Assembly (NCBI GenBank): GCA_965655095.1 | Contig: OZ296655.1 | Location: forward strand, 31,310,001 to 31,374,000 | DNA: 64,000 nucleotides | Direction of reading: 5' to 3' | Source of the DNA: Haplodiscus bocki | Taxonomy: Eukaryota | Shown here: positions 8,497 through 57,965 of the stretch, piece by piece | Layout of the letters: each line of letters begins with the position of its first letter | How positions within the stretch are numbered: position 1 is the stretch's first letter | The notes under the pieces: generated by a model | The model's database searches: none | Seen by the model: the letters and a program-made list of their open reading frames with translations, nothing else | Told to the model about the DNA's origin: nothing | Program-made: the position numbers and the translations under genes

Positions 8497-11400
8497 CTAA
8501 GCTCTCTCGTGGATATCGAGCACAGCGGAAGGAACAAGTCCCAAGAACTTCAAAGGAGTATCCATCTCATCTTCTGAAAATACCTTCTTTGGAAATGACG
8601 TCATTAATGTGAAATTATTGCTCAGAGGTGATGGCGCGTTTAGCTGCGCAAAGAGACGCACAGCCGAAAGAGGTTCATTGACTTGGAATTTTTGGACTTT
8701 TGGTGGGCCGCCTCTGAACCTGATCTGAAACAGGAGACAAAAAACGATGCACTGGCAATTTTACACTTCAAAGCTAAGTAAGTCACGTCCAAGTCACCAG
8801 GAGCAGTGAAACACTGAAAAACGACCTTGTAAAAAACAAATAGCGGAAATTTCTACGACTTTCCTTACACCACAATATTACGACGAATTAATACCCGAAC
8901 TTTCCAGGATACCCCCTTTCTTACGCAAACAAATATCAGCTACTAGTGCCATTCACGATACCCCTCTCAAAATTCATTGTTGGTATGCAGAATACAAATA
9001 ACACAATTTTATAAATTTACAACTGCTCAATTTTGACATTTATGGCGGATAATCGAGAATACTGAATTTTTCAGCTCTACAATACGGAAGTTTATGGCGG
9101 ACATACGAGAGTGGTGAATTTCATATCTTTACGTTACAATATTGACATTTATGGCGGAAAATCGAGTGGCCGTTAATCGAGAGTGAAGTTTACATGAGTA
9201 TAAGTCATGAATTTGCTTACAACAGTTGAATTTAGATAGCAGACGTAAAGAAAGCAATAAAGGCAGTCGGCTGAACTATTATGCTATTTTACAAGTTTGC
9301 TTCAATTTAGGCGCCACAAATAACTGGTAAACAAGGTCAAGAGGTGTACCTTTAATCTCGAATTCGGTCACGATATTAAAAAATGATGAGGAGGCAGAAA
9401 GAGTGCTGCCTGTATTCTACCTGTATTCTAGTCTCAGTGTACTCTGTTTTGGGGGCAAAAGCTGTTGAAGTTGCCGTGGCGACAGACACTGATGACGTAA
9501 CAGCAGCTGTAGCAGTAGCACCAGTGGTGCCATTCTGAATTCCCACTGCGTTTGTTTCTTTTTCCAGAGCCGCTTTTTTGTTCGCTCTGTCCCTCGCTAT
9601 TTCTGCTTTTACCTTTTCTCTGAAAGTCACGGACATCAAAAGGGTTCAGCTACACGCTTTCATAGGCAAACGACCATTACTATAAACGATCAGAACCAAT
9701 GAACATGAAGGCTGGCAAAATTTCCGAGAATAGAAATTAAGCATGCTTTACATTCATTAGGAAAAATTGTCTATTATGAATTTGATACCAAATATTTTGT
9801 ACACAGAGGTGAATCTGTGCTTCGCAACACTTGCGCAGACGGAATACAAGTAAAAAAAACGCAATCATATTTCAATCGGTTGATATTTTCAATAAAAATA
9901 CTGATTCTAAAGCGGCAACGGCAGTCAGTAGAGCATGCAACTGCGGCGCTCAAAACTCATCGGTTCGAGCCTAGGACACTTCCTTCGATTTGATCAAAAT
10001 ATAGGAACAAATGCAAGTTTTGAACGGATCGGAAAAAAGTCCGCAGAAGACTGTGATGTAAGACTTGCTTGCGCAAGTGTAAAAAGTAAAAATTATATAA
10101 CAAAACATCGATTTAGTTAACCTGGCTATTCTGTCGGCTTCTTTTTCCCGCCTCCTTTCTTCTGCGATCTGCATCATTTCCTTTCTATGGTGACTGAAAC
10201 AAAAGCATTTACTAAAATCTCCTTGAATTTCTCGTAAACTGCCCAAAGGTACAGATAGAAGTACACTACAATGAAGGCCTTTCAAAGAGTACCGTATTTA
10301 GAGAAAAGTGAACTAACTCTTCTTTGACTTGTGACAAGGTCTGGCCTTCTTTCCTCCGCGACTTTTCTCTCGCCAGCGCTTCGGCTCGTTCTTCATCTTC
10401 TCTCTCCTTCCGCCTTGTGGCCATTTTTTCTTGAAGCCTGAAAATATTTCATTAAACAGTATGAGGGTGATCGATTAATCGCAACTTCTTCAACAATCAT
10501 TTTTACAGTCGACGCTTTTCAATTAAGTTAAAGTGCCCGACTATTACAGTGGCTCGTTTTACTCACCGTCAATTCGACTAAAAAATATTTGTGAGTAGTA
10601 AGGATTGGGGGGGGGGGGGTGTTCGCACCGTAGATGGCACCCAATAAATTTTCTCTATCTTGACAGCTAAATATACAGAAATATCGCCTGCAAACATTCA
10701 ACTAACATCTTTGACAGCTCATTCAACAGTATGTAAACTTTCCCTAGTTTCCACCAATCGACCCTACGTTCTCAAATTATCCTAAGATGAACGTTCTACT
10801 GTCTCTTCAAACTCTTTGAATGCTCTGTTCCCCAATTCAGTTTCATCATCCAAATTTGCTCAAATTTCTAATACCACGGACCTCATTCCATTATTAAAGA
10901 CTATACATATAGTGATTTTGAAACGGAAAAGGTACACAGTGCAGGGTTTCCTGGCAAAATTACTTTCATAAAAAACCGAATCCACGCTTTCGATATTTGA
11001 AAAATGTTGCTGAAAAATTCCATTGAAAAGTGCGTTCAAAATGCCCACTTTCCATAGTTTTTACACCTGAACTAGATATAATAATGGTTAAGGATTAGAT
11101 AGCCAGCCAGGAAACTTTGCCATCTGAGGAAATGTTGAACTGCACATTCTATGCGAAGCTCTTCACCAACAAAAAGTTTTTAAATTGGCACATCCGACGT
11201 GTGCATAAAACAGAACCAAATGAGTCTGTTCGGTCATTCAGCTGTGGTTACCGCGAAACGATAGTCACCCAAGTGAAGAGCGTAATTCGCCATGTGAGGC
11301 AGCAGCACAATTACTCGCAAAACTATGGCTGTCAGGAATGTGCACGTATATTTGGTACGAACGCTTCGCTTCAAGAACATTCAACGGAAAATCATGCAAC

Positions 11401-14400
11401 CTTCTCATCACAACAATCAGCAACAACTCCCGGCGATTGGGGAATTCCCGCGCTAGTGACCACCAGTTCTGCAATAAATTCATATTTCAACGTTCATCGT
11501 TTCGACTTCACTTCCCAAACAGTGGACCCATTTGCCTTTTTGATTGGACATATCGGAGAGATAATTTCTTTTATCAACGATAAACTATCTATTGTACACA
11601 TGACTCGCGTGGGGCTGTGCATGCAAGTGAAAATGGTGAAACCATTAAGAGGAGAGACGACCGAGCCTTTCTTTAACACAGTCCTTTTATCTTTGGCTCA
11701 AGTTGTTACGGAGGACGACGTCTACAATCTGATCAAATAATTACTCAGCTCAATGTATTTAGCACTGGTGGTTCGGGTTGGATTGTGGAGAAACTATTAC
11801 AATTTGATATCAAAACAAGCAGAACTCCTCGACTTGGTGGAAGTTCCTATATACCAACACCGCCAGATCTCTGTGCCCGGATTTCACGGCACTGCCTTTT
11901 AAACATTCGTAATTTGTATGACAACTATTGCTTTTTATACTCAGTAGCAGCTGCACTGTTTCCAGCTGAAAAAAAATCGTCAGCGACCCAGGAACTATAT
12001 TGACAACTTCCAGCAATTGATATTCGACCCGGCCGCAATGCCAATGAAACTTGTGAGTATACCGAAGTTTGAACGCGACAACATTTTGTCAATAAATGTG
12101 TACAGCTACGAAGATAGTTTTCTATCTTGTTGTTATCTGACCAAAAACAAGACTGTCGCTGGCAAAATTAAACTGCTGCTCTTAACAGAGGAAAACAACT
12201 ACCCTTACTGCTTAATCACTAATTTTCAAACATTCATCCATCGGGTGTGTCGCTCGAAAAAGAAGGCAGAAAAAAGGGCTAAAAACAAAAATTTGGCAGC
12301 AACTGCATGCAATTTGTGATCAAATCTGGATACAGTAGGCACGTCAAGCTTTGCAAATCTAACAGACCGCTGGATATTTCAATGCCCTCAAATGGTTCTG
12401 AAATTGAATTCTCAAACTGGCAAAATGCTTGTTCGTGGTATACGCAGACTTAGAGGCAATTACTGTTGCTGTAAACGAACCTCAAACTTCGAAGAACACC
12501 AAAAATATTGAGCTGCAGTATCCAGCAAGTTATGGAGCTGTGTTGGTAAAATCGAAAAGTAAGTTCCACTTGAATACCATTTTTTTGGTTTCTCAAAAGC
12601 CCATCATACATTTCTAATTTTTTTAGCCAATAAAGTTCAGTTCGAGTCCTTTTACCGTGGGCCGGACTGTATCGAACAGCTCATTACTTGCCTTCGAAAA
12701 TGGTTGGGGTGGAGTGAAAGTCAGCAACAAAATTATCGAGAGCTTTCATCAGTCATGTCCTGGAGTGAACGGCAACAGCTTTTGTCAACAGAAAACCCAA
12801 TTTGCTGTTTGTGCTAGGAACACGTTAGCCACAAAAAAGAAATGGTTATTCATCATTGTCACTATTCTGGTCAAATTTACGGGATCGCGCATTCTAGATG
12901 TAACCTAAAGGCCCGTCGCTCTAATTTTCTGCCCGTATTCTTTCACAACCTTGCACAATACGACGCGCACCACATCTTCAAAAAATTGCAACTCGAAGCC
13001 AATGAAAAGCTCTCTGCCATTTCCAGAACTGATGAAACGTATACCTCCTTCAGTATATCGGTAAAAACTGGTGAATACAAAAACAAATTCAACGTGAAAG
13101 TGCCTCTTTACAGCCACATTCGTGTTCTCGACAGTTTTCAATTTATGTCACAGGGTTTGGACAACTTGGCGAAAACCCTGCAACATGAAAACTTCAAACT
13201 CACGAGAAGCATTCGGCAACTTGAATGATGACGAGTTTATCAGTGTCACTCGAAAAGGCTTCTTTCCATATAATTATCTGGACAGTTTTCAAAAATTTAG
13301 TGCACCGTTTCCAGCTTTTGGCCCCGATTGGAAAAACACGCTGTCCGGAAAAATTGAAATTAGTGAAGAAGACTACACGCAAGCTTTAGCAATGTATAAT
13401 TTGTTTGCTTGTAAGGATTTTGCAGATTACCACGACCTGTATTTACGTATCGACGTCTTCATACTAGCGGATGTATTTGAAACGTTCAGGAACGTATGTC
13501 TTAAGGTTTACAATTTGGATCCTGCTCATTTCTTTTCAGCACAGAATCTCAGCTGGGATGCAATGTTGATTACAACTAGGGCAGAGATTGGGTTACTGAC
13601 AAACATTGAAATGTTGCTCTTTTGTGAAAGGGCAATTAGGGGTGGTGTCAATGGCATCGGAGCTTTGCGACACTTCAAAGCCAACAATCCCGACACAAAT
13701 GATTAGAATGCAAATGAACCTACAGTGTATGGAGCATTTTTCGACGTCACCTCGTTGTATGCCTGAACTAGGCAACAGTCTTTGCCACTGGAAGCCTACA
13801 CCTGGAGAGCAGATTTGACCATTGAAGATATTCTGAACGCTGACCCAATGGGTGAATTTGGCTTCTTTGTAGAAGTGGACTTAATTTGCCCGAAAGAGCT
13901 TCATCACTCTCACAATGATCCTCCCCTTGCGCCGGAAAAATTGGCAATTCAACCAGAATGGTTATCACCATATGCCAAGTCATTCAACAATCGACCTTCT
14001 GCTGTAGAAAAATTGGTAGAAACGCTACTTGGCAAAAGACTCTACGTGTGTCATTTCCGTAATTTGCAATTCCACCATCAGCAGGGACTCAAGGTTGATA
14101 AACTGCATAGGGTCCTACAATTCAAGCAGAGCAATTGGCTAGGCACGTACATAAACAAAAACACTGTGATGCGAAAACAAGCAACAAACGAATTTGAGAA
14201 AAACTTTTACAAATTGATGTCCAATGCTTGTTTTGGCAAAACTATGGAGAATCTTCGAAACCGAAGACTCATCAAATTTGTGCAAAATGAAACGCAGGCC
14301 AGCAGTCTCAGTTTTAAGCCAAATTACAAGTCGTTCAACATTATTAATGCGAATTTGGTATCGGTCGTAATGAACAACACCAAAAATTTGTGGAATAAGC

Positions 14401-17400
14401 CAACAACTGTAGGTGCGGCCATATTGGACTTCTCCAAGTTGACACTGTACGGATTCCATAATTAGGAGATGAAACCCCGATATGGAGATTCAATGACCGT
14501 TGTTTATAAAGATACAGATCTCTCCTCTATCGCGTGGAAACAAACAACCTCTACTCTGATATGGGCAACTTAAAGCACCTTTTTGACCTGTCTGATTATC
14601 CAACCAGTCATCCCTTGTTCGATGCTTCTAATAAAAAGGCGCCCCTTACCATGATGATGAATTGCAGGGAGAAGTGTTAGAAGAGGTGGTGTGCTTGTGA
14701 TCGAAACTTTACAGCATAAAGTTCAACGGTGGAGTCAAACAAAGTGCCAGGGGCGTTCAGAAAAGTGTAAAGAAGTCTCTTCATCATGAAGCCTACCGTG
14801 AAGGCTTGTTCAATAAAACAACAAGGCGGAAAGAAATGACCCAATTGCATTCTGAAAATCATCAGATTATCGTCAATAGACTGAGCAAAGTTGCCCTCAA
14901 CGCGTTTGACGACAAACGATATCTCTTGGGGGATGAAAGCCAATCTGTTGCATATGGCCATGTGCAGCTAAATCAATTTCGTGGTATGTTTTTACTCCTT
15001 TCTAAGCGTTTAAGCTGGTGTTGTTTTTCTCCTTTTCACCATTTAAGAAAAAGTTGTTTTTTTTTGTAGAGGTGCCGTCGTTCGAAAATGATTGTGCTGA
15101 CGATGATAACAGCACCATTACATCTAACTGTGACGTTGTTGATAAAGAATCTACCGCCTCTTGCTCTTCCTCCAATTCTGAATACACTGATGACGAAGAT
15201 AACTTTTCATCTACATGTACTGCTACGTTTTCATTATCTGCTGATGATCACGCACCAAATGATGATCAACAGCCTACTACTTCGACGGCAATTTGGTTGC
15301 CCACCACCACCTCCATTCGTTCTAAATTTAGTTGGTAACGTTTTATTCATGTTAAGAGAGTCCATGTAATATTTGGGCTGGTTATTTGAATGTTTCGCCG
15401 CAGGTCCTATTGATCCCGGGTTCATCTCTCGATCTGACGATGAATGTTCTACTGCTGATATTGTTGATTGGGACAACTTGACCGATGATATTATGGAGAC
15501 CGAAATCGAAAAAGCGTCCCATAGGAAAAGGCGTTGTCCCTTTATAGATGACGAAGCTGTCGAGAGTGAGGGCGGCGGTGGCGATGATGATGATAATGAA
15601 AACTTTCAATGATTTTGACCAGAACCAACCTGCGTTTCGCCAACCAACAATCAAGTAAGCTGCCCCAGTTATGCTCAGAATTGAGAATAAAAAATAGCCA
15701 GCCTGATGATTTCAATTTTTTAATTCATTCTGAGTTGGCAAAATACCATATAGTATTTATATGAGTTTATACTTCAGTTCCAATTTACAGTGAGTAGTAA
15801 AAAAGCTCACTACATCAACTTCATGTATTTGCCTCAAGGGCTGCAAAAGAGTATTCAGAGTAAGGTAATCAATCTCTTCCCCCTCCTCCATAACTGAAAT
15901 GCTCTTGTGGCTGGAGGATGTGAAGCTAATAAAATGTTGAAGAACGTTGTTTTCAATTAAATAAAGGGCCATATATAGACAATGCAAACCGCACAAGTTT
16001 GAGGTGGGAGTTTGAATGGGTGAGCCAATTTGATAAACCTCCAGCATTTGACTGCCAAAAAACTTCAAGCGTTTAAAAAAGTGCGTATATTGTCTGGTAG
16101 GCATACCCATGCAATCCCACACAAGCACCACGCTCTTGTGTTTAATGTATTTATAGCCTACAAATCCTTCTTGTTGTGGGTACTGATCATTATTTTTAGT
16201 AGTCTTCATGGGCACTGCTGCAACAATCAATAAAATCCAGTGCCGTCCCATGTCAATCGACCGGGCACTGTTTACAGTTTGAAATTGGAAAATCATGTCA
16301 CATAGGTTAGGATGATTATTGCGGTTGCCACCACTACTGATCTCGAGATGAAAGTGATCTGCTGACCACACACCACCCAATTTGGTCCACAATGCCGGAC
16401 AGTAGTCTCTGGCCATTGCATCCAAAGTAATGTTATCCATTTATAAGTGACTTTATCGAAATGTTGCGATGCGAATCAATGTAAATTTGACTGAATCGTT
16501 CGCCAATGAGAAAGAATTCGATTCCCGTAATCAAAGCTGCGTCAAATGCAAGTTTGAGTGTGATTCAGCTCCAGTCAATTCAGGAAAAAATGTAAAAGAC
16601 TTGCTGGCCTCCCGCGTAGAGGGTAGATCAAACACAAGTATGGAGTGATTGTCTTCAAAATCTTGCATCAAAATTCCTTTGCCACTCCTGTTGAAACCCA
16701 ATGCTGATATTGTGTTGTAATATAAGCGTGTACCGTTGCCGGTATCCATTGGTGTACCGGCAATGGTAACACCGTTGCCGCGTTGAATTTCAACCTCTTG
16801 TAGGCCAAAATTGCCGTACGAAAAGGGCGTTGAGGCTATCGTAGTTCACGAAAATGACCATACACATTGTCAAGCGGCGAATAGGCTCGGTGCCGAAAAT
16901 GTTTTCCTTGACGAAGCAATTTTGCCCAGGTTGAATGATAAAACTCTTGTTTAGGTTTTGAATAGACGGGTACACAGCTGGGCTCTTTGACAACGCTCGC
17001 TCAATGCTCATCTTCACAGAGTCGGAAAGCTCAACCTTGTTCATAAACAAGGAGGCCTCTTCAATAACAACACTATAGGGTGTCTGGTCTGCAGCTTTAA
17101 TAGCATCTGCGTCCAGGGTCCCAACTGCTTCAAGCGAACAATTGATCGGTGCTCTGTAGAGACGCAAGTGAAGTGTCACACCTGGCAGCAGGAATCGTTC
17201 ACATTCGAAAAAATCCACGTGCGGCGCCCCGTACAAACTAATGCTGTAGTTGCCTCTCTTCGTGAATGCATCTATGATTTTGTCCTTTTGTTCCGCATAC
17301 TGCTTGGCGTCACCTCTGTACCCGTAGCCTTGACATTGGGCCCGAGTCTGTTTGCCTTCAGTGTCTGAGCTCAATTCAGTTTCTACAAACGCTGCATGGT

Positions 17401-20400
17401 GGTAGTTGTTGTTGCTACTCGAAATTAGTTTGCCATTCAAAAATAGCTCGACATGCGAGAATAGCGAATGTAATAGATTGTTGCCATAAATGAGTACTGG
17501 ATCGGTTCCGGGCTTGACTAGTGTTTTACCATCGGGTGTGTACAATGAAACGTCCAAGGCAAGACAAATTCTATTAAGATCAATGCAGTTTTTATTCTCG
17601 GCAATCACAAAAAAGTCCAACTGACGTCCCCTACACCCAACGTGTGGAAAGACTCCTTGATCGCAGGCACCTTCATAATTGATGAGAACGTTTGGTCGTT
17701 CAAAAAAGTCTAGCGCACTCTGGGTCACTGGGTTTGCAATTTCGGTTGATTTACTGTACATGTTGTCGTCGTTGCTGTTGACGCCATTGGGTAGTCTTGT
17801 GTTTGTTAGTCTGTTTGTGTGTGTGTATGTGTGTGTGCTTAGCACATGCTCCCCTCTGTATTTCCTCTTCTTTTCCACCCTCCTTTGTCAATTGTCAAAG
17901 TTTATTGTGGATAAAATGTCGGCCCGACTTCTTTTGGCGGTGTTTCGCCTCGAAATGACCACATCATTAGCAGCTGCTGGTGATTTTGCTTGCCCTCCTC
18001 CTACTCGTCCTCGCCGACCAAAACCACTACCCTTGGCATGTACCTGCGCGGCGCGCAGCCCTGTCGTCCGCCCGCCGCCGCGCAAGCGTCCCGGCCGTTC
18101 GCCGCGACCGGTCCCTCGGCCGCCCGCGGCCGGCGAAGCGGTCATGTTGGTCAGTGTTTTATTTACAGACTTTTTGAAGGACTCTTTAAGGACTGTTCTT
18201 GGTCGCTTGCGACTGGCCGACGTCGACGACACTAGTTCGGGTACAATGGATGTGAAAAATTTTTTACCAAGCTCTTTGGCCACAGGCACAACGTACTTTT
18301 TCACGAGTGGCATGGCAACTCGACCCATTCGCATTGCAAATGCTCCAATTCCTCCGCCTGATCCAAACTGTCGTGCCGGTCCTCCATAAACTCTTGCTCC
18401 TCCTCCTCCTCGCATTGAAGACAGTTGAAGAATTTGATTGTCATAATGCGAATCCATCTCACTGCCATACTCGCTCCTTCTCAAGTTTGTTGAAGAATTG
18501 ATAACTTTTCTTTCTTTCACGACGACCACCACATTCTCCGGTTGGCTCCGAGTGTGCAACACTGATTTTCAAAACGCTTTTTCAAAAAATGCTGACAAAA
18601 CCTTTGTACGAGAGAGAGAGAGAGAGAGAAAGAATGGCAGACAACCATCTCAGCGGCGCATCATGCTAGTCGTTTTCGAAATTGTAAGGTGACGTTTGTC
18701 CTACCACGGCTCAAAAATGGTACTAGTTGGCCAGTTTCGTTTCGTAGTGAGATTGAAATTGACTGTACCGTAGTCTTGACGATGCGTTTCCACTGTAGAT
18801 TGGTAAACATTTGATAATGTAGGCTAGTGAAAGCTGCCGGCTGATGATTAACACTGACCCTTGTTGACAACGATTTACTAACGTATGGTTGATTTTGATG
18901 GTGAAAAGTTGGTAGTGGAATGGCCTTCAGCAATGCAGTTTGGCAGTAGCAAAAAATCTCATTTTGCACGAGGTCGCAATAGATCAGTATTGTGTGACAT
19001 CCCGCATTCAAGTCTGTGGGATACTGACCAGCACTTTTTGTTGGGAAAGCATCATGTCTACCGCCACCATTGCCATCTTCACTACGGTCTTTCACATTTG
19101 AAAGGCTGCTGCTGCAATCGAGTAGCGTTGTCGTACCCTAAATGTTTTGCAAATCGGTCGTCTGCGCTTTGAGGATTAGGCGGTCATCGTTACTTCCACT
19201 AAATTTGACTCGTAGTGTTTGTATTTGAGCATCAATTTTTCAAGATATTGGGAATTGCTTGCTGCTGCTGGCCAACTTGTTGCGAAATACTTGCTTGCAT
19301 ATTGAATCCATTATAAGATCAATGCTCGAGTAGATTCCATGTTCTATATTTTCTACAGCTGGCGGCGCAAATGTTTCGCCCAAGTACTTATTCGGCGTGT
19401 ACATTGTAACCATTCCGGGACGGCGATGCCGTGGTGGTGGCCGTGCATCTTCTTCTTGGCAATTTATAAATTGGTAGGAAAAGTTCCCTTGAAGAACATT
19501 TTGTACAAGGCTCGGCCAAGACATTTCCACAATTGCCACCTCCCAATCGCCCATCAGTTGTATTGGATGTGGCAACAGAGTGGTAAAGTTTGCGAGAGTG
19601 TTGTCGGGAAACGTGGACATGGACGCGTTTGAAACTAAATCTATATTAAATTGCTCCTGGTGAGACATTTGTAGTTGTGTGTGTGTGTTTGCAAATCAAT
19701 TAAAGACGACAGCGACTAGTGTTGTGGGGATTCGCCGTTATTTTTGTTGTTAATGTGCTTAAAGTGAACCAATTCGGGTTCGTAAAATTTGCCTTGGATA
19801 ACTTGTTTGTTGCAATCGCTTATAGAATACGTTGGAGGGTTGAGTGTCTGGATGGCCGGAAAGGTGAAAGCTTCTTCGGTAAATTGTATGCGATAGCCAC
19901 GATGAAAATTGTCAATTTTTCGTCTGACTGACCTTCTGGCCAATTTTAAATTTTGGTTCTTGTACCTTGTTAGTTGCCTGTAGTGATATCGAGAATTGTA
20001 CGTCTTTAACATCCACATTTTTGGGAGCAATATGTGTAACACGATTTATTCTACCATTGATTATGCTGACAAACTTTGGTAGTTGATCCAAGTAAATGTC
20101 GGTATTGTTTTCATGAAGGTACTCGAATATTAATGCGTTAAGCGAACGGATAGTGCGCTCTGCGAAGACCGACTTTGCTTCACTGCAAGTTGACTAGATT
20201 GTGATGGAGCGTTCTCGGCAATATTCGGCAAACTCCCCAGCGAATTCTCTACCCTTAACCACCCAAATCTTTTCCGGTTTAGCGGGTACCTTTTCCTTCC
20301 CGCCACAAAATTTGGGTTGCATCTGCTGTCTGCCAGCTTGGCAACATGTAATAATTGCGTTTAGACCATCAGCGCACGACTTTGCACTTTTGCCTTTGAT

Positions 20401-23400
20401 CGGATATACCCAGAGAAACCTACTCTACGTGTCTACGGCCACAAAGAGGTATCCAACACCATCATTCACGGATGACAAATTTTGCATGTCCGCCAAATCA
20501 TCAGACCAAATTTCGTTCAATCGATAGCTTTGCACCTTGAGTCTAATGAAACGCCTTCTCGTTTGTTTAAATTTGGTATATGTTTCGCTACTTGCTAAGT
20601 ACTTGTCAACATCACTGTAGCTGCAGCGCGATACTGTTTTCAACGATTGGCGACTACCAAAGGCCGCTGGGTTGTCGTAATTTGTGTATATGCTATGTAG
20701 TTTGCTAAATGTTACCGTGTCTTTGTTTGCAGGCACAAGTCTTCTCGTGTGTGAACATTTGGTACATAAAAAGTCTTCTCGTACGAAAACGAAAACATTT
20801 ACCAAGCCGCAGCAAGAAAAATGTACCCAACCACAAACATGACACCAAATAAATAGTTTTGTTCGAGAACCCTTCCCCAAGTCTTCCAAACAGTTACCGC
20901 ATGTGTAGGGTGGTTTATTGTTTGCTGGTGCCTTCTTTTTGCGCATACTAGTGTCAATGCGACGTGTGTTGTTGTTGTTGTGCAGACTGAACAACTAGCT
21001 AGTGGCTTGATTCTTATGAAAATGAATTGGAGTCTCTTGTTTGAGCGGATACTACACAATAACCTACTAGTACATCTTGAACCATTTGTACTGGTCTGTA
21101 GTATTTTCGTCGGGTGCACTACGTTTCATGTCGTTTGCAACTTGCTTTGCATTGGCGTTTGCTATTAGGTATTCGGGTACCCTCAACTGACGAACAAGGT
21201 CGAGACAACCTTCACTTAGCCTCTTAGTTGGTACTTGCAAGTCGGACAGGAATGCAAAAATTGTCAAACCAGTGTCTCTATGATAGAGGTGCAGCCTTCC
21301 TGAATTTGAATCAAGGGTTACTGAATCACTGCCTTGTATTTTGCGAAGTATTTGACGAGCTCGTTCCACTTCTCCAGCACTCAATCCACAAGGTAAAAGT
21401 TCTAAGATCACCTCTGCTGAAATGTTGCGAGCCCGATCAGCACAGTCATTATGTTCATTGGAAGACGAGAAGGAAAATGGTGGCGTGTCTTTCAATTCTG
21501 CCCTTTTCTTTTTGTTTGCCTCAAATCTTGTCTGAAGGTTTAGTTGAGCCACCGCCGCAGATGTACCCGCCGCAATATTCTCGTTTGTTTTCAAGTGAAA
21601 ATCTAGGATTGAGCCGTTTTGAGATGGTTTCAAGTGTGTTGGTGAGGACTGCTGTTGTTGTACTAAACTGGTGCACTGATTGTGTGGCGATGCTGTGAGG
21701 ACGTTGTTTTGGATGTGTTGTTTAGTTGCCAATAGTGATGTATATTAATCTCGAGTTATTAATGCAAATTCTTTCACGCTACTGCTTGAGCTCATGGTGC
21801 TTCTTCAAATGATTTGAAATTGACGGTTGGATTAATGCCAAAAGCTTCAAGCCTTCATCTGACAAAAGTAGCCGACGTTTGAGGGCTATTTTTATACCCC
21901 TTCGGTACAAGCGCTCTATTTGCCTTTTATTTCGATCAAGTTTTTTCTTTGTAACGCTACTGTCCATTTTTACAAGACCGTGTACCACGTTGCAAATGCA
22001 ATCACAGAAAAATTTAATGTCATTGTTGGGACAATATGAAAGTAAGCTCTTCTTTACAATTGGTTTGAATGAATGGAACAAATGAAGCACATAATAGTCT
22101 CGTAGGCTCATTTTGTACAGTTTCTGACGTTTTGCTGGTTGCTATGAAAAAGGTTGATGGTCTGGCGCCAGAACAGTTGGTTGAAAATTTCAGTTTTGGG
22201 TCTGCTCGCGAATCCAAGTCAATCAACAAATGACCATAAGGTTTGAGTGTACCTTTTTTATATGTCTCCAGCAAAAGCTTTCTTTGACCCATTTGCCTAC
22301 CGAGAGTCGATATTGGCTCAACATCCTTCGGACTGTTGAAGAGAATCAGCTGACTAATATTTAAATGAATTGTTTTTAAAATTTTTGGTTTGCTGATAGA
22401 GATTGTGCTTCATTGTAATCAAATGAACATTTCGATGGCGTCTCGAAACTACCACCTCGAGAAATTTTTGACTGGCTTGTTGATAAAAGTCATTGATAAC
22501 AACCATTGTCCGTAGCTTTTGGGCTTCACACTTGTCAATAGCTGACCAATTTATTCCCTGGTAAAACTCAATTGAATTCTTTTCGCCCATCATTCTAATA
22601 CTCAGGGACTCATATTTCGGTTGAAAATAGTTATGAAAGTACAAAAATTTATCGAATGGTGGTTTGAAAACATTCCTTTGATTGACCAACATCTCTGCAA
22701 CCAGTTGCGTTTTGCCACAACCAGTCGGCCCCACAACGGAAATGAAAGTGTGGTTCGGTATCAATGCGTTTGTTCATTGACTAGTTGATGGGGGACGAAT
22801 AATACAGCCGACGCTCGCTGATAGAATAGCAAGTACACCTGACGATGTACTTGTGTTTGCCGGAGCAAGAATCAAGTAACCGATGCAAAACAGAATTACA
22901 GCGAAAATGGTTGAATAATGTAAGAGTAGGAAAGTAAACGCTCTATCACACAGTAATTGTTTTGTGCAACAACAACCACAATCGATAACAAATGGCGGTT
23001 TCTCAATATTAGTGTCATCAAATATCAGTTCTCTGACATTGGGGCCATCAGCCAAATCTAACGTAGTATCTTGAATAGTTGATTCGGAAACGATAGAGGA
23101 ATCACCATCATTTGTCATTGCAACTTTGGTAAATGTTTATTGTATGCAAATTAGTTTATAGGAATTGAATAACTTGATGGAAACCAAAGGTATATGTTGA
23201 AAGTGGAATCGAAACTGTAAATTGGGGAGAGCGTGCGACTGTCATTGAGATTGATTTTTAAACAAAATGGTTAGAAGCTATACTTCCGATAACCTTTGTT
23301 TGAAAAAAGTTTTAATAGGAACCGATACACCAGCCCAGTCAAATGACCCAGTAGCATGCTGTTAACAAAGATGGGCTTCTGTGACAACGCATAGACGTAA

Positions 23401-26400
23401 CCGAGCCCAACCTCATAATTGCGTTTCATAAAACCAAATGCGTCGTGAAATTTGGCATGCAAAAGAAACAATTCAAAATAGTTTTAAAATTTTTCTAAAC
23501 CGCTGTTGCCCGATCCAATAAGACCACCATATATTGCCAATTCATTAATTTCTAGAAGACTGATGTCTTTGTTTAGACTATAGCACACTGCTAAGAATGC
23601 ATTTTTTTGGCGTGTTTTTCGGAAATATATAGTTTACAAGGTTGAAATTATTCTCCAGAGCTTCACTACTTAGAAGGTGATGATGATGCATTCTATCTGT
23701 GACTCTCGCAAGGAAAAACCAACTGATTATCAAGAAAAAGTCTATTCAAATGGCTGGATAAATTGAGCATTTTCATCAATATATGAAAACAAATTTGTCT
23801 GATAATTGTTGATTGTGTTTCCTTGATTTGGCAAATCGAGGCATTCAAAACACTGGCACTGAGCGTTGGAGTAGCCCAAGTCGATTGACAGCGTGTTATT
23901 ACGATGTGATGCGTTGATGTTGTCAAAACCACGTTTCAACAGGTCAATGAAGAAGTCAATCACGGAATCTTTGAAGGGTGCATCAGAGCGTTGCAGCTCC
24001 ACCAGCTTTTTGCTAAGATAGCTCAGCTTTTCCAGATCAAAACCATCGTCAAACTCTGCGTAACTGGTACGATGGAACTCCCATGTTAGATTGAATTTAC
24101 ATTCCAGTCCGTTAGTTGTTGTGGCATTCATCATTTACTTGATCTTTTCACCATGAATGAAGAGGTTGTTTGTTGACAACGTAACTTCGGTTTTGAAGCA
24201 AATCTCGAGGTAAGTGATTGCATAGAGCTTAGCTACGCAGTTTTTGATTTTCAATATTTTGTCTTTTTCGGTTAGAATATCCCCAATTGTTTCTTTGATG
24301 AACTTTTCTGCTCCGACAAAAGATGTAGCAGAATGTGATAGTGATCGTTTTGTAATTGAGAGCATACGTCTTCTGCTCCACCAATCTTGCCGACTATGTG
24401 TTTTCTCACCGTATATTCACAACTTGTCGCCCTAAGCAGTTGTTTCAAAAAGCTACATAGGCTTTTGGGGAATATAATTTCGCTGTGATCTTGGCATTTT
24501 TTCTTCGATACTTTAGGAGCAGGTGGCTCAGAAACATCACCAGCTGCGACTATCTCTTCGTGTGTGTAGAAGACAAGGTATTGAAAGTGAGAAAGAACTT
24601 CACGGAAGACGCTTGTCATGGCGAAGATTAGACGTATTATGACCAACGTCTAAAGCCAGATATCTTTATCTTATCGTTGTTACGTAAGTAGAATTTTCCT
24701 TGATAACGTGTTCGGACGTTTCCGTTGTTATGGTTTTTCCACTGTAAAATGTACTTCTAGCACAGACCGTCCGTTGAAAAGTCGCGAGGTGGCTTTGAGT
24801 TGCAACTGTTGCGTTCGTATACGATGTTCGGACGGTTTGTGCCAGAAGGACATTGGAGCGAAGTCCGAATTAGACTATTTGTATTATTATAACTTTTAAA
24901 GAATGCCATAATTCGTGTTCTACAAACTGTTACCTCCTTATGACTTTACTTGGTTACTCTACCTTCTTATAATGGCCAATATATTGATGGAAATGGAAAT
25001 AAAGGTTAGACGTATCAAATTGAATTTTTGAAAAAAAATGATTTCTTTTATTTCCATTTTTTGGAATACATGGAGGCCCTATCTATACACTGAGGTCTTC
25101 ATGTGTGATAAAGGGTGAAGCAACATGTTAGTTCAACGTTTGCAGTCGATATTTCTGTTTATTTAGCTGTCAAGATAGAGAAAATTTATTGCGTGCCATC
25201 TACGGTGCGAACACCCCCCCCTATCCTTACTAATTTTGTGCATTCCCAAAAGAGCAGTTATGACATATAGTACAAAATACTACAACGAATACAGAAATAC
25301 AAACCTTTTCGAGCCTTAATGCTGAATGATTTAGCCGATTTAAAGGGCAAAAATATATATTCAAGTATGAATTTTATGTAACAATTTTTTTGAACCTGAC
25401 ATTTAAAAAAATTTTTCTTTATGGTACGTTTGAAGCTAAAGTTCGGCGTGTTTCTCAAAATTTTCGTCAATCTCAGTACTTAGTTCTTAACCGATAGGTA
25501 ATTTTTATCGACACTCGCCGAGTCTTTCATAGATTGATCATGATCGACTTCGAATTTGCATATTAACGAGGACCAAAATAAACTGACGTTTTTTAAAGTT
25601 GGAAAAATTGAGCAAAAATTTTCATGACGTCTTCCAACCCAGTACTTGGACTCTTGATCGCCTTGTCAAGATCTTAGATTTCTTGGCGAGATCTTGCCAA
25701 AAAAAGAGGCATTTGCATTGATTTCTTGAAACGACGAACAACATTCCGAACACTGGGGATGAAAACTCAAATGAATTATTTAGTTGTCGATTTCAACTAC
25801 ATCGCCTCACTCTTTCAGTTTCTGTTTTTTCTCTTCTTCGGTCAAAGGTTTAATCTCTTCTGTCGATTCAGAGAAGTTTGAGTGACTAGTTTTGGCTGCG
25901 TGTGCCTCTGCTTCAATTGTAGACCTCAGCAGACGGCCACAGTCCTCACACTTTAGAGACATGGCCACTTCCCCACCTGAGGGCGCAGCTGCTGCTTCAG
26001 GGGGCGAGGATGAATCAGATGGCGCTATTCCTACACTGCCCGGCGCGGAACCCAATACATGCCCTTGTGACAGTGCTGCCCCACCCTGAGATGCACCGCC
26101 TATTCCCGCATCAGGGTTACTGATAATCCTAGAGATAAGAGAAGATATTAGAGTTGCGACTACGAATCTTTATTCGATTCAAGGAATTTTACGAAGTCCT
26201 TCCAGAGACTGCTGATGTATTCAGAACTCTTAAAGTCATTATTGCCAGTCAGAAAATATGGAAGGAAGGTTGTTTTTGATTATTTGATTAGCAGGGATGC
26301 AAATGGAGAGCTGGTTACTTCATGAACAACGAATAAATACAGTAAGTGACGGGAAAATTAATCGTCAAGACGCATGTACGGTTTTTTGGGTATTTCAAAT

Positions 26401-37637: not shown

Positions 37638-38858
37638 CTATTTTTCAAAGAGGGTCTGTTCGGATTCAAAGAATTTGCCTTGAATCAACTGATTGTTGGC
37701 GTCTTTTATGGTGTATGTGGGAGGGTTCAGTAATTGAAGTGCGGTAATGGTGAAAACCTCATCTGTAAACTGAATGCAGTACCCTCTAAGAAATGTTTCA
37801 ATTTTTGGTTTTATTCTAACTTGCTGGCCAAATTTGCATTTGGTCTAGCGAATTTGCTTGAAAGTTTGAAGGGAAATCAGATACGGTACATCACTTGTTT
37901 CAACGTCTTTCGGCGCTAGATTCGTGATGCGATTCACTCGACAATTAGTCACGTTTACGAATTGCTGTAAATTTTCAATATACGTGTCTGTGTTGTTTTC
38001 GTGCAAAAATTTGAAAATTATTGCTTTCAAAGATCGGATGTTTCGCTCAGCAAACGCCGATTTGGTTTCACTATGTGTCGAATAAAGCTCGATATCACTG
38101 TCTCTGCAGAATTGAGAAATTCATCGGCAAACTCTCGACCCTTGTCAACCCAATTTCTTTCAGGTTTAGGCTGACTTTTTGAATTGGGCCGACATAACTT
38201 CGGTTTCATCATTTCCGGTGAACTGTTTTTTCGCACGCAAAGGGCTCCCATGATTTTTTGCAACGCGTTTTTGCATTCTGTTGCAGTCTTTTTTCTCAAT
38301 GGCAGCGCCCAGACAAAGCGGCTCAGAGTGTCCACCGCAACATAACCGAAGTTAATTCCGTGGTTGTATCGAGATAGTTTTTGCATATCGGCCAAATCAA
38401 CGGACCGAATTTCATTCAATTGAAAACTCTGGACCTTCAACCTAGGGAAGCGATTTCTGGTTTGTTTGAACTTGGTATAAGTCTCACTCCGATTTAGAAA
38501 ATTGTCAACTTGTCTGTAGCTGCATTTCGAGGCTTTCTTGAGAGCATTTCCGAAGGCGAATGCAGCTGGGTTGTTGCAAGATGTGTAAACGTTATGTACT
38601 TTGCTGTAGGCTAAGGACTCCGCTGTGGAATCGGCAATTTTCCGTGTCACCGCACATTTTGAACAGAGAAAGTCAAGTCCTTTTATAGTCATCGACTCGG
38701 TGAAGACCACTGCAATCGAAATGTACGCAACCACAAATGTTGCACCATATAGAAGGCTTTTGACGTGAACCTTTGCCTAACTCTTTCGCGCAATTGCGAC
38801 AGTGCTATTTTACTTTTCCGTTGACTTTTGTTCCACCACCAATTTTTCTCTGCCTCAT
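37638..38858 (-). pseudogene. E2 integrase with N-terminal PHD finger; disrupted
   Basis: CRNC...IWCNICGCVHFDC...FLCSKC, then VDLADMQ, VAVDTLSRF, WVDKGREF, AERNIR, QGKFFESE followed by a stop. No chromodomain. Confidence 0.92.
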
Positions 38859-42074: not shown

Positions 42075-43146
42075 AACAAGACCGCCGGCTAGCACTGGCA
42101 TATTTTTCGCCCAACTACAAATATTTTGATCAAATTTTGCAAACGGTTAAAAACAAAACTACTGTTTTGATATTAGTTTTCAAAGAATTTTTACACACAT
42201 CAATTCCACCACTGATTTCTGTACTTTATGCAAAAGGACATCACGATTTTCCGTTGAAAAATTTTTGTCTCACAGTGCCAAAAAAATTTGTCGAGGAACC
42301 CTTCTGTGTTTCAGAAAATTTCAGGGATCGAAAAATTTTATGCCTAAGAGGGGAATATCACGATTTTCTATAGAAAATTTGTTGTCTCACAGTGCCGAAA
42401 AACTTCGTAGGGGAACCCTTTAGGGTGTCACTAATTTCGGGCATCGAAAAATTTTATGCTTCAGAGGGTTATGTCACGATTATTTGTCAAAATTTTTTTT
42501 GTCTCACAGTGCCGAAAAATTTCGTAGGGGAACCCTTCTGTGCTGTGTTTCGGAAAATTTACGGTAGCGAAAAAGTTTATGGATAAGGGGGGGGGGAAGT
42601 ATCAAGATTTTCCGTGGAAAATTTCTTCTCCCACAGGACCGAAAAACTTCGTAAGGGGTCCCTTCTGTTTCACTAATTTCGGGTATCGAAAAATGGTAGG
42701 GGTAAGAGAGGGGGCGGGAATCACAATTTTCCGTCGAAATTATTTTGTCTCACAGTACCGAAACATTTCGTAAAGGAATCCTTCAGTGTTTATTTAAATT
42801 CGGGTGTCGAAAAAGTTTAGGGATAAGAGGGGGGGGGGAGGAGGGAGGGAGTATCAAGATATTCCGTCGAAAATTTTTTGTCTCGCAGTCCCGAAAAATT
42901 TCGTAGGTGAATCCTTTAAGTAATTCAATAAATTCGGGCATCGAAAAATGTTAGGGATAAATCGTAAAAATATTTGGCACGACAGAGACTCGAACCCCAA
43001 ACCTACTGCTTGAGAACGCTGTTGTCCTAACCCTACTGCTGTCATTTATTTTTGAATAAAAAGAGTTGGCAGTTTTGCACTGAAACAAAACGACCCTACT
43101 GAATGAATAATTTTTCTTGCACATTACATATGCGGCGAAAAATAAT
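42075..43146. mobile_element. HINE/Helentron-like element, family B, with six ~115-133-bp tandem units and a tRNA-derived cassette
   Basis: Subterminal IR ATTTTTCGCC (42102) / GGCGAAAAAT (43134). Units start ~42240, 42357, 42472, 42601, 42720 and 42853 (core tgtctcacagtgccgaaaaatttcgtaggggaaccctt). Minus-strand B-box GGTTCGAGTC at ~42990. Confidence 0.6.
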
Positions 43147-46358: not shown

Positions 46359-49259
46359 CTAAAAAATTGGAACGTAGTTATCAATTTTGGCTTTGTGCTT
46401 CTGAGCAATACATTCGGCGATCCAGACAATGTTTCGGTTCTCCTGTTCCTTCAGTTTCACGAAACTGTAGAAAGATCCGTAGTTGAAATGATAGAGGAAA
46501 GACTTTTTGTTCAGCTCCACTTCGTATTCGAAAAATCTATCTTCCAAGGTTTTCTCACCTGGGCCAGTACCACAGCTTTCGAAACGGGCGTTGTACTCGG
46601 CGTAGTAGCTTGCCACTTGCCTCACCTGTGAAAATTATCAGTCAAAAATAAGGCTGCGCTGATATCTGAGAGCAAACGTAAGCATCAATGATGGTAGGAA
46701 TTAAACGCCAAAAAATTGGCATATTAGCAAAAAGACTCCAATTTCACGTGAATTGGCTGATAATTACGAAAAAACAAAAAATATATACAAAAAAATTGAC
46801 AAATTTTAGAAAAAAATCAACTTTTAGCACTCAAAAGAGAACTGAATTTCTTGTCATTCACAGAAAAGTGAAAAAAAGTCGATCAACGTTGTTCTTTCAT
46901 TAGCTAAGCGGAGTTAGTAAAGTGAATGAAAATTCACATCAGGAATTTCCCAAAAAGTAAGCCTATGCAGACTATGTATTCTACTCGTTCCGCATGTAAT
47001 TCTTCCGCTCTCCATTCCAGTTTTATCTACTATTCACAGTTGTAACGCAGTGTTAGAAATTTCAGAATTTGAAGCGAAGAAAAATAGAACATAAATTCAA
47101 TTGGTCTTTAAATATATCGCTCAATGCCTGAAAAAACTAATTCAATGCTGACTTTCGCGTAAGGCAGTCGCATGGTTTGAACTCCTTATCTCCATTTCTT
47201 CCAACTTTTTTTGTTAATTTGTTAATTCTGTTCAGATGCAGGTCTGTATTCCTGAAGTTCGTGTATTTTTGACTACAATTTCTTGCAAAAAACTTACTAG
47301 TGATTAGAACCTCGCGCCGATTGTGTTGATTACCGATTTCTCTCACAACTACTGGTCAAGATGAGCAAGAAGCAGGTCTTTAAGTTTGGATCATGCTCAT
47401 GGATTTGTATTTTCTAACCTGTTCATAGTCATCACATCTAGCCAAAGCAGACAGTCCGTAGGGGTACAGTTTGCCACACTTGGGGTACAGCATTGCTCTG
47501 TCGTCTTTAGTCAGTTCCGTTCCAAAGGAGTTGATTGTGATGATGAACGCTCGTCTGTCTGCTTCAAATGCTAGCAACTCACACATTGACTCAGCTGTTG
47601 GTCCGCCAAGGTACTCACAAAAGTTGTAAAAGTCTTCCAAGTAGGCCTGCACACAAAACCAATCACACAATTACAACAAAAAGATACACTTCACGTGCAA
47701 GCAATAATCATCTTGTTTTTAACAACATTCCCACGCCTAATACTCTTGCTTTCTCATGACTAATAATGGTTTTTGTCGAAAAGTAAAAAAATTATGCCTA
47801 CCCCATTCAATGAGCTTTATTTCGAAGTTATTTTTTTCCATAACTAACTGTGAAACCGAGACTTACTAGTTTATTATCTGTCTTCCTGATATTTCTACAG
47901 TAACAATGAATTAAATCAAAACACGCTACGATAGCACTTATACAACAAGACGCTCAGCTCCGGGATATTTTCCGCCCTCGAAATACTACGGAACGAAACG
48001 TCAAAAAGCCATTCTACGGCAAATTCGAAACCAACAGGCGAAATAAAATGAATTCAGAGTGCAATTTTGTTTTATCGTGCAATTGACAAATGTAATGTAA
48101 AAAACCTGATAGTTGCGTTAATGATATTCAATCCATAAATGAACTAAAGGCGAAAAATGATAAACAAAAAGATGATTCGTACAAGCAATCAAGTTGCGTT
48201 CAAAAACATCCCCGTGCCTATAGCTTTGCTTTCTCTTTATTAATACTAAATTTTGCATCTAACATTTAACGAATGCTTCTAAATCAGGGAAACTGTCACC
48301 GCTGTAACCAACTGTAAAACTAAAACTTTTAATATTTTGCTTTTTCCTGATTTTTCAATGGCACCAATGTATTAAATCAAAACACGATAACTCTTCCCTA
48401 ATTGAGGAAAAGTACTTTTTTTTCTGGCAAGAGAATGCATTATTCTTGCATGTTTTTGTAAATAATAGATTTCTTGCAAGATTCTTGCAAATAATAGGTA
48501 TCTTGCAAGACTCTTGTAGGTATCTTGGAAGAAATGTATTGCCTGGAAGGATCTTGCAAAAAATGCATCGAATTACAAGAATCTTACAAGGATTCCATTA
48601 CCTTGCAAGAAGTATGTTTTCGGACGAATCTTGCAACATTCTTGTAAGAAATGCATTTTTGCTCAGCTAGGGCTTTAAAGCAATTTTGCAGTGATGCCCA
48701 TACTTACCTTATAAAGGGTATTTCTGATTATCTCAATATTCATCTCATCGAAATCTCCATCCGTAAGACAACCAATGAAATACGGCGCAAGAGGAGTATC
48801 AACCAGAATAGCATTGTACAGATCTTGAGCACTGTTTGCAATATGGATCAACTCCAGCTGTGCGAAATTTCCCAGCTTATGACATTTGGGCAGCAACTCG
48901 CGCACTGGTCTGTTATGCAAGACACCAGTAATAACTAGCACAATGTTATCAATCATGTACCCATAAGTTATGTAATCCAAAAATGTCGACAAAGGCGATA
49001 CTGCTTGTTGGCGAATGTGCTGAAATTCGTCGACTAGTTTTTCCCGCAGTTTCTCATCGATGACGGAAACGCTGAGGGGACTGGGTTCGTTGGCCAGGAA
49101 GTTTCCATAATCCGTGCTCTGGAGATGAAGTTTCAAGTCTTCCAAAGTTTCGCACTGGGAAAGATTCGTATAGTCGTGGGACTTGAGAATGCCTGATCGG
49201 AAGCCACGAACAAGGCCGTCTAAGTATCCTGAGTTCACGTTGAACACTGTATCAAACAT
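46359..49259 (-). CDS. ATP6V0D1: V-type proton ATPase V0 subunit d, 3 exons (49259-48708, 47646-47419, 46625-46359), 348 aa
   Basis: [35 protein letters not shown]|[42 protein letters not shown] phase-0 introns. Confidence 0.97.
48396..48672. repeat. MITE-like element with internal TCTTGCAAGA palindromes
   Basis: Ends CCCTAATTGAG / CTCAGCTAGGG, possible CTT target duplication, many cttgcaag repeats. Confidence 0.45.
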
Positions 49260-49323
49260 TTCTATGCCCTGAAAAAATTGTTACCGATACAAAAAAGTAT
49301 ATGAGCGAGCACGGACATATACA

Positions 49324-57500: not shown

Positions 57501-57589
57501 TTTCGGATAACCGAGATCAAGATCCGAGTGGTACTTCGGCTGCTTGAGATATCGGAGACTCGGTCGAAATCAGCAGAAAATGAAGACAT
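54524..57589 (-). CDS. EXOC4: Exocyst complex component 4 (Sec8), single coding exon, 1021 aa
   Basis: Sec8 N-terminus LISVIRKLS...RE.ERIKLEGSY...DARLEKIV...KVKANLSACKEQIRCKREELKRL, and C-terminal ADNCLIGFHLEL. Long uninterrupted ORF. Confidence 0.85.
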   Translation of the reverse strand: MSSFSADFDRVSDISSSRSTTRILISVIRKLSDHSSDPSLREDERIKLEGSYDVVDARLEKIVKAKQDGLNRTVSDFQKICSNVHSASEHLAKVKANLSACKEQIRCKREELKRLHNESEENNAVLDIFERIETISQMSQLVQECIENEQYVKAAEIIQQVSTNFEVLSEIPVVSNISFPMDIKEKLYSKIVEAIEFELYEQSIAALATESDFSRGVSIDSQSGIFAQSNPQMFTKLNTSVFRKPIINELPQAERNSSAENVEATLTELVKALSVLGKLRDASGVLQSHFTAKIENLLQCTLLEVVNNTSQRPISLDESNSHLLNKHEQKLTWLFEILQSKLIKIVEHQNLFIQKMNVALLQAEKSSSCSSIYSISTFLITFQATVINLLEQLLNENSGSFNSGAERYYSKGAISSGSSLLTGATGSRLTGTLLGVTESRGASGDSASRNRPFVSFAPSINRTSLQNSPARLRTQSSSEIFPSSAGGTVSKQGSPGANKISNFLNAACSILNIKAFYNTLEEMCCYISVQMGCEKNQCMLHENVQKYIDDNLQSYLTHKIKDTLENKIARDSIGSIESSRSLLTKLDSDKPLAQSCILAYELLSYLANISKQLPDFSELFTNLVSHFLGSFNSRVHPKYISMFSRQGAAREEATSTSLKLIGDKDVSVILGSIKGASQFRLVQDESPGKASSKLMTANTEELVSKLMTSLNEASYNGKLRTITDVKQYSELFQVLSVLSYSINWLVTKTRELVDNFGPNFSQSQNCGDVGKRQTPLGADLNRSINDLKVIADNCLIGFHLELKVVTFSQLTSLLKNSKSSGSNQLAALELHDEVKDLSRLYSEAGIAAAKFLPEPEINFLFSSLPLFIQNIYLSNSTNIANTTQFELDLLLLDVLELKRLLQKTNLADKESWARSNEAFDKITSFYEFLRYPPKDIIRIANQKKMCFQKDMWTVLLNASFAKFGISGDAELSTLLNDLKDVTSSGGSSSVRKTSTSERTFQSEPKNNSLLLNGTSQSSSAL

Positions 57590-57965
57590 TGATTTGAATC
57601 GAATATCTTTACATCTTCTCTGAAATGATCAAGAAGTTTTATAATTAAGAACTCAGTAAAGATGTCAATATTTTGATTAAATTCAGTTTATGACTTAACT
57701 TCGAAAAGACTGTGAAATATGCTTACTATGGCAAACATTGCCACAAAAGTCACAATTTTTTGAAACTTTGAAATGAAATTTAAAACTCAACAATAGCAAT
57801 AAGAGAATCCCTATGAAACAGCGAATTGGGAAAAAAATCACAAGGAGAAACAATCCAATTTGAAAGCGAAAACTTTGATAAAACGTTTAGCCATATTTCC
57901 TTTGACATTTTGCTCTTTCCATAGACGAGTTTTGAAATAGGAGGCAACAAGAATGGGAAACCTTC

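Follow-up and report, generated by a model that had tools for sequence, protein, structure and literature searches.

Why should the integrase of a Polinton begin with a zinc finger, where did this finger come from and what might it bind? These questions are raised by a stretch of 64,000 nucleotides of Haplodiscus bocki DNA (assembly GCA_965655095.1, contig OZ296655.1, positions 31,310,001 to 31,374,000; hereafter the window), which holds two decayed Polintons, E1 and E2. Among related architectures, chromodomain-bearing adintovirus integrases, PHD fingers on Ginger1 and Mutator transposases and PHD fingers in LINEs are already known, and the LINE fingers were said in 2014 to be without functional study (PMC4120745). 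The first-pass annotation of this DNA had proposed that the integrase carries an N-terminal PHD finger in place of a C-terminal chromodomain, a chromatin-reader swap which could tether integration to active promoters. In the present study, we found that the fusion of PHD finger and integrase is real and new and has a traceable origin, whereas promoter targeting is a possible but not the best reading of it.

Results

Polintons E1 and E2 in the window

The features of the window used below, with the evidence for each in brackets, are as follows.

10594..25234, Polinton E1 in full; its terminal inverted repeats begin with AGTAGT and its 6-bp target site duplication is TTTGTG
10588-10593 and 25235-25240, the two copies of the E1 target site duplication TTTGTG
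20908..20946, minus strand, start of the E1 integrase, Met 20946 and short basic leader (sequence)
20755..20907, minus strand, E1 PHD finger, C4HC3, short Cys4-x3-His variant (sequence, family models, fold searches)
20509..20754, minus strand, E1 helical N-terminal domain and linker (aligned with the retroviral NTD)
19716..20508, minus strand, E1 integrase catalytic core and C-terminal SH3-like domain (rve Pfam row, structure alignment, sequence)
38654..38807, minus strand, relic of the E2 PHD finger (motifs homologous to E1)
37638..38858, minus strand, E2 integrase, decayed
48675-49280, 54524-57628 and 57966-58916, minus strand, host genes: a V-ATPase d subunit piece, Sec8 and Tom22 (Pfam)

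E1 combines AGTAGT ends and a 6-bp duplication with Pfam matches to pPolB (DNA_pol_B_2), an adenoviral-type protease (Peptidase_C5) and rve, and with weak P-loop ATPase-like rows of the packaging-ATPase kind, which together are the traits of a Polinton. No Pfam row for jelly-roll capsid proteins was obtained from the window ORFs, and the capsid labels are putative, being given from gene order. A repeat search of the window found no terminal repeat pair or ends for E2. No RNA holder of this stretch was listed, a result with no bearing on expression. Elsewhere in the window, the Sec8 frame runs uninterrupted for 1034 codons, two 133-bp arms, 23 bp from each other and 91% complementary, form an inverted repeat at 933-1221, and a tandem array with units of about 117-133 bp lies at 42240-42964; related arrays flank other E1-family insertions.

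Reality of the finger-integrase fusion

The claim that a C4HC3 finger stands in frame with the E1 integrase was confirmed on the minus strand from Met 20946 onward, where YTCGNC (20907-20890), IWCHVCGWVHFSC (20850-20812) and FLCTKC (20772-20755) follow each other and the frame continues into the integrase. The C4HC3 order was as described, but the second spacer has 13 residues and not 12. A loose C4HC3 pattern occurred once in the six frames of the window and in none of 60 shuffles. Two in-frame TAG stops, one at 20427-20425 and the other inside 20205-20185, and a frameshift near 19925-19912 break the E1 integrase. The homologous E2 finger was also found, with its motifs at 38807-38654, though it is broken: a stop stands just ahead of the first ligand, the Trp before the His is missing, frameshifts lie within and ahead of the finger, and as it stands it is spread over more than one frame. 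No chromodomain follows the GKF(Y/F)ExE motif in either element, as had been noted; the last E1 frame stops (19718-19716) 16 residues past GKFYEPEL and the E2 integrase ends 6 residues past GKFFESE.

The H. bocki genome (1.5 Gb) was searched using the finger and the integrase start as query; 150 of 6418 candidates were scored and all 150 matched. In 16 of the 74 fetched loci (one place was fetched twice), the finger, the catalytic Asp motif and the C-terminal FYxxE were found in one open frame of 408-476 codons, and the finger is thus not a separate ORF in intact copies. Fourteen of these frames end 5-16 residues after FYxxE and the other two after 31 and 52, and a chromodomain was found in none of the 16. 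The predicted full-length model (pLDDT 86.7, with 91-95 in the finger part) had foamy-virus (PFV) integrase as its best whole-model structural match. Model residues 139-407 align with the retroviral core and CTD; in HIV-1, RSV and MMTV integrase, residue 1 is matched at model residue 81/84 and the alignment runs on from there. Since model residues 81-135 align with the retroviral NTD, the finger would be an extension ahead of the NTD.

Fold and conservation of the finger

The PHD assignment had been left to be checked against RING and other zinc-binding folds, and Pfam alone does not speak with one voice. The PHD family reached 17.9-18.1 bits over the full profile in four of six isolated fingers, below its cut-off of 24 (PF00628), E1's own isolated finger had a weak zf-UDP RING row (E 0.12) and nothing else, and one copy had no row at all. 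However, the His is ligand 5 in the finger and not ligand 4 as in the C3HC4 order of RING, and the structural searches were of one kind. With the finger-only predicted model (pLDDT 85.7), each of the 40 Foldseek rows was a PHD-finger protein or a complex of one (TM up to 0.62, no row reaching E<=0.001), 48 of 50 rows of the VIA fold search were PHD-type (best Z 5.9, rmsd 2.0, 51 aligned), and the Atlas neighbours were PHD clusters (best 0.90). No RING row appeared in the Foldseek or VIA list, both being filled by PHD rows. A PHD fold is predicted for the E1-family finger on this basis, and a RING or another zinc-binding fold is very improbable. The Cys4-His gap has 3 residues, against 4 in the compared host PHD fingers, and alignment of the finger to solved PHDs takes a one-residue gap. 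The finger is therefore a PHD variant with short Cys4-His spacing, lying below the Pfam cut-off.

The eight zinc ligands in C4-H-C3 order and a G-W-V-H core are invariant in 27 aligned copies from several subfamilies, which were chosen for an intact ligand pattern, and a Phe two before Cys7 is present in 36/36 family members. In 21 pairs of seven open copies, pN was 0.12-0.37 in the finger and 0.09-0.34 in the core, with a finger pS of 0.45-0.98; pS across regions was 0.40-0.98, so that synonymous sites are near saturation. Because finger pN equals core pN, the finger is under purifying selection, and it is as constrained as the catalytic core. These data, together with the invariant ligands and core, largely refute the view that the finger is a jobless passenger left by a LINE insertion. 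Such a view could draw on large families of the same genome which have spread with neither finger nor chromodomain, the finger being dispensable for integration in general, and we give it hardly any credence.

Order of events in the integrase tree

The integrase frames of the families with neither finger nor chromodomain have 312-348 codons, and metagenome relatives of the E1 integrase lineage with a complete C-terminus are also without chromodomain; the closest metagenome loci were 65-97% identical to the query. For the integrase tree, 11 near-redundant rows of an earlier tree were dropped and 14 metagenome rows were added, giving 56 rows with a root on 12 outgroup integrases (11 with chromodomain), which are distant and narrow. 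The 44 chromodomain-less rows formed one clade (100/100), in which the 22 rows with the short finger were nested (97/93). Within the latter, 2A-bearing lineages branch first, and the E1 and E2-like families belong to a nested group of 12 rows without 2A (100/96). In a smaller tree the root inside the chromodomain-less group was not settled (AU p 0.415 and 0.405), and it was settled only once the metagenome rows had been added; the ingroup taken without a root was split in the same way (98/90). An initial tree, whose root lay on a tandem-duplicated long branch, was discarded. Overall, it is probable that the chromodomain was lost before the finger was gained.

This order bears directly on the proposed replacement of one domain by the other. 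The PHD fold, the fusion and the absence of a chromodomain all stood, but the chromatin-reader swap did not, because the chromodomain is missing from a much wider lineage, including same-genome families with neither domain, and the PHD clade is nested inside it. Two sister integrases (P0096 and P0100) have a different finger of usual spacing, which groups with a Penelope-type finger in the finger tree (97/78) and is either a second capture or a replacement. In the H. bocki genome, a Penelope-like RT-GIY-YIG frame with a PHD inside the RT domain was seen at L142:3024-4727 (minus strand) and also in L143, L144 and L151. This PHD is placed between QRDGVAMG and YVDD (Pfam PHD 25 bits, RVT_1, GIY-YIG), and it is the L142-type finger that groups with those of P0096 and P0100. 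A scan of viral contigs gave two loci, both chromodomain-bearing, and a third homolog search returned near copies of one PHD-less family only. In other genomes, the called frame of some chromodomain-type integrases (P0315, P0352, P0420 and others) also takes in PF08398 and PF18930 domains upstream, by fusion or by read-through of decayed copies.

Probable LINE origin and the 2A-like leader

A profile of the finger was compared with 1.84 billion representatives and gave 109 matches. As judged by eye among the matches listed, ranks 1-40 were Polinton integrase pieces and those from rank 41 on were mostly LINE N-termini, with a few unclassified; no host chromatin protein was recognised among those listed. 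The LINE matches are of the 2A-PHD-APE type or have fingers heading RLE-type RT proteins, and Pfam on 27 of the matches found APE in 6 (one weak) and RT in 1. Several LINE fingers have the short Cys4-x3-His spacing and the Trp before Cys3, as in Polinton fingers. When a LINE 2A-PHD query was run on the H. bocki genome, the 20 best loci were a 2A-bearing Polinton subfamily, 44-58% identical. The same genome has 2A-PHD-APE-RT LINEs (parts in 9/20 fetched loci, and a second family in one more), and the comparison of such a LINE with the Polinton leader and finger gave 37% over 73 residues. In the finger tree, which has 56 columns and long branches and whose LINE rows had been picked by searching with the Polinton profile, the fingers of Polintons grouped with those of the LINE ORF2 type (99/98), apart from host and ORF1 PHDs.

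Among the 120 listed homologs (of 378) there are several lineages in which a hydrophobic leader stands right before the finger and closes with G(I/V)ExNPGP. Two 2A-bearing elements checked in the H. bocki genome are full Polintons with the gene order of E1, and across 25 loci of the 2A-bearing subfamily NPGP was intact in 16 of the 24 readable copies. The early-branching 2A-like motif is a hydrophobic tract followed by xExNPGP, in which the canonical Asp of D(V/I)ExNPGP is mostly Gly; one early-branching member (P0050) has no 2A in its called sequence. The peptide is missing from the E1 leader and from E2, the E1 subfamily being without 2A. According to excerpts of PMC3708506, the layout 2A-PHD-APE is known for CR1 and Crack LINEs, and the activity of a 2A varies with its upstream context. 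Skipping is on record for a GxExNPGP peptide of DHAV-1 (PMC6249498), and a reduced protein output for many eukaryotic 2A-like peptides (excerpts of bioRxiv 10.64898/2026.06.17.732966). By analogy, the Polinton 2A-like leader may cause skipping ahead of the integrase or dampen its production.

It is highly probable that the finger is of LINE origin, having been taken, likely with the 2A-like peptide, from the start of a LINE ORF2 protein. We infer the direction from LINE to Polinton because the module is spread over many LINE families and is confined to one integrase clade. The LINE family of the H. bocki genome is not the closest relative of the finger, so that the donor itself lies outside the LINEs compared here. 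One database protein (P0226) had suggested that the upstream gene is fused to the 2A leader; this was not supported, since in L053 the two frames overlap but are separate. Further PHD-bearing frames were seen along the way. RLE-type non-LTR elements in the H. bocki genome (L190:723-4010, plus strand, L191, L192 and L193) and P0300 start with a short Cys4-x3-His finger and have no 2A motif, and LINE ORF1-like frames of 237-409 codons in the same genome (L136-L141, L146-L150 and L152-L155) begin with a PHD finger of usual spacing.

Residues of the binding face and insertion sites

In PHD fingers that read H3K4me3, two to four aromatics form the cage and an invariant Trp separates the K4me3 pocket from that of Arg2; the latter pocket is often acidic, with RAG2 having a Tyr in place of the acid, and readers of unmodified K4 have an acidic patch before Cys1 (excerpts of PMC3241642). 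The numbering of the cage positions on the finger was checked against host fingers. The Trp two before the His is present in 35/36 family members. Two before Cys1, 22/36 members, E1 among them, have Tyr or Trp, whereas early-branching lineages have Leu, Met or Thr there. Three before Cys3 we found S in 17, T in 7, L in 7, P in 2 and C, V or I in the others, and Met or an aromatic in 0/36; the residue directly after Cys3 is N, H or T in 36/36 and never Asp. By comparison, five Trp-bearing fingers of host proteins from the same genome have Met or Tyr three before Cys3 and Asp after Cys3. An acidic Arg2 pocket, the usual trait of H3K4me3 readers with RAG2 as the exception, was absent from 36/36, and the acidic cluster before Cys1 that marks readers of unmodified H3K4 was absent too, the leaders being basic. 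The net charge of the finger is on average +6.3 (range +2 to +10), with 0.25 acidic residues in the N-terminal half (n=36). H3K4me3 reading by the finger is doubtful on these residues. Directly before Cys3, however, Trp or Tyr is found in 36/36, which recalls the Tyr of RAG2, and so a non-canonical pocket is conceivable.

The insertion sites of the E1 family were compared with arbitrary sites. A host-gene ORF was found within 8 kb in 3/20 outer flanks and at 2/20 arbitrary sites, a comparison of low power with one side per insertion (n=20), in which selection also removes promoter insertions. None of the 20 flanks had a gene start abutting the element, and no target sequence was shared by 30 left-end flanks, three of which come from one duplicated site. 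CpG observed/expected was mostly near 0.9 and was uninformative. One copy (G000:C1, outer flank L262) has gone into, or right next to, the 3' part of a coding region for an ABC transporter. A histone gene cluster repeated every 4.6 kb, with at least 150 H3 matches, was seen at about 15.6-16.3 Mb of G000:C4 and on C37. Taken with the residues above, the suggested tethering to H3K4me3 and promoters is weakly supported: it keeps the near-constant Trp on its side, and has against it the aromatic before Cys1 in only 22/36, the lack of Met or an aromatic three before Cys3, the basic finger and the flanks.

Discussion

The scenario that we put forward, and which as a whole we rate at about even chances, is that a PHD finger, likely with a 2A-like peptide, was captured from a LINE ORF2 after the chromodomain had been lost, and that the finger likely serves as a basic grip on DNA or nucleosomes and not as an H3K4me3 reader. 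It builds on the fusion, its conservation, the absence of a chromodomain, the 2A-like motif of the early branches and the sequence kinship to LINE fingers. In this course of events, a Polinton lineage would lose its chromodomain first. The 5' end of a LINE would then recombine in frame ahead of the integrase gene, either by insertion and deletion or by template switching. The 2A-like leader would initially be kept, where it may release a leader of 30-40 residues or lower the integrase output, and later be lost in the branch toward E1 and E2. The finger, with its charge of about +6, would add affinity for the viral DNA ends or for target chromatin without choosing promoters.

As to the main job of the finger, a grip on nucleic acid or on the nucleosome surface is our tentative choice, with chances somewhat short of even. 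The mean charge of +6.3 and the few acidic residues were counted in its favour. DNA-binding PHD fingers do exist (PMC6222470), but the two described there are atypical (C3HC2H, extra sheet) and unlike our finger, which was counted against a grip, and a plain electrostatic grip has against it that the invariant Trp, like the conserved aromatic before Cys3, points to a specific pocket. These aromatics would suit a finger that reads the methylated H3 tail (H3K4me3 or, in the manner of RAG2, H3K4me together with methylated Arg2) and so steers integration to active chromatin in replacement of the chromodomain. Besides the counts of 35/36 for the Trp, 22/36 for Tyr or Trp two before Cys1 and 36/36 for Trp or Tyr before Cys3, such a reader has the precedent of RAG2 with Tyr for acid in the Arg2 pocket (excerpts of PMC3241642), the suggestion that LINE PHDs may aid genome targeting (PMC4120745), and the gain of two different fingers in sister chromodomain-less lineages. 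The best fold matches of the predicted model, too, are mostly H3K4me readers, but they weigh little, since solved PHD structures are mostly H3K4 readers. Against a reader, the Met or aromatic three before Cys3 and the Asp after it, both present in the five Trp-bearing host fingers, are absent, as is the acidic patch that readers of unmodified K4 have; the finger carries a strongly basic charge, and the H3 tail is basic too; and the flanks have no gene-start enrichment (3/20 vs 2/20, at low power). We consider a reader of this kind unlikely.

A binding partner of protein nature is a further reading, in which the finger would hold on to a factor of the host, to a further integrase subunit or to a virion protein through which the integrase is packaged. 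PHD fingers also bind non-histone proteins (excerpts of PMC3241642), the finger has exposed conserved aromatics and a conserved LG(K/R) loop, and the same finger type occurs on APE-LINE, RLE-LINE and Polinton proteins, which share little beyond the need to reach nuclear DNA. On the other hand, the high positive charge fits nucleic acid at least equally; this reading also seems to us improbable. A more elaborate alternative is that a chromatin reader was re-acquired twice from retrotransposons (the LINE 2A-PHD and the Penelope-type finger), the short finger reading methylated H3 via a RAG2-like aromatic pocket and StopGo setting the integrase dose, and we find it more improbable still. We therefore retain, for the time being, the basic grip as our working view of the finger.

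The LINE origin would make this a traceable transfer of a module from an RNA-based retrotransposon to a DNA-virus-like element, in which the 2A-like peptide is the fingerprint of the donor and the tree gives the order of chromodomain loss, 2A-PHD gain and 2A loss. Families with and without the finger occur in one genome, in which the binding of the finger and its effect on insertion sites may be compared. A working 2A, if true, would extend StopGo recoding to Polintons; no report of such recoding in any DNA virus-like element was found in the literature searched. Likewise, no description of an N-terminal PHD or of a 2A-like peptide on a Polinton integrase was found in the literature, including available portions of PMC8502044, PMC8097293, PMC10748475, PMC11071296, PMC12846837, PMC12338488 and the bioRxiv 2A surveys, with supplements, subscription papers and Repbase outside this scope, and the portions of the main text of PMC8502044 and PMC11071296 so covered do not mention a PHD.

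Comparison with known systems

With the Polinton/Maverick (adintovirus) integrase and its element, as described in parts of PMC8502044 and PMC11071296, the E1 family has in common the rve core, the SH3-like C-terminal domain, pPolB, protease, ATPase, AGTAGT ends and the 6-bp duplication. It differs from the chromodomain-bearing adintovirus integrases of the same sources in having no chromodomain and an N-terminal PHD, with a 2A-like leader in addition in early lineages. In Ginger1-9_HM and the Mutator transposases, too, a DNA transposon has a PHD joined to its integrase-like DDE enzyme; unlike the Polinton finger, this PHD is C-terminal, stands beside Ulp1, belongs to cut-and-paste elements and comes with no 2A (excerpts of PMC2836005). 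The PHDs of BPTF, TAF3, ING, AL1/AL3 and RAG2 resemble the Polinton finger in its predicted fold (TM about 0.6) and in the Trp before the His, and that of RAG2 resembles it further in an Arg2 region without acid and an aromatic before Cys3 (excerpts of PMC3241642). Compared with H3K4me3-reading PHDs, the Polinton finger has a Cys4-His spacing shorter by one residue, no Met or aromatic three before Cys3 and a charge of about +6. The integrase of foamy viruses likewise has an extra small domain ahead of the NTD, an N-terminal extension domain that contacts DNA, but the Polinton finger is of a different fold and was not aligned to it in any listed row. The closest likeness in layout is to the ORF2 proteins of CR1, Crack and the sea-urchin STR elements, with which the Polinton module shares a hydrophobic leader, xExNPGP and a PHD at the start of an enzyme ORF (excerpts of PMC3708506). 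In contrast to these, it sits on the DDE integrase of a DNA-virus-like element, and its motif, G(I/V)ExNPGP, has no canonical Asp and was lost in E1 and E2.
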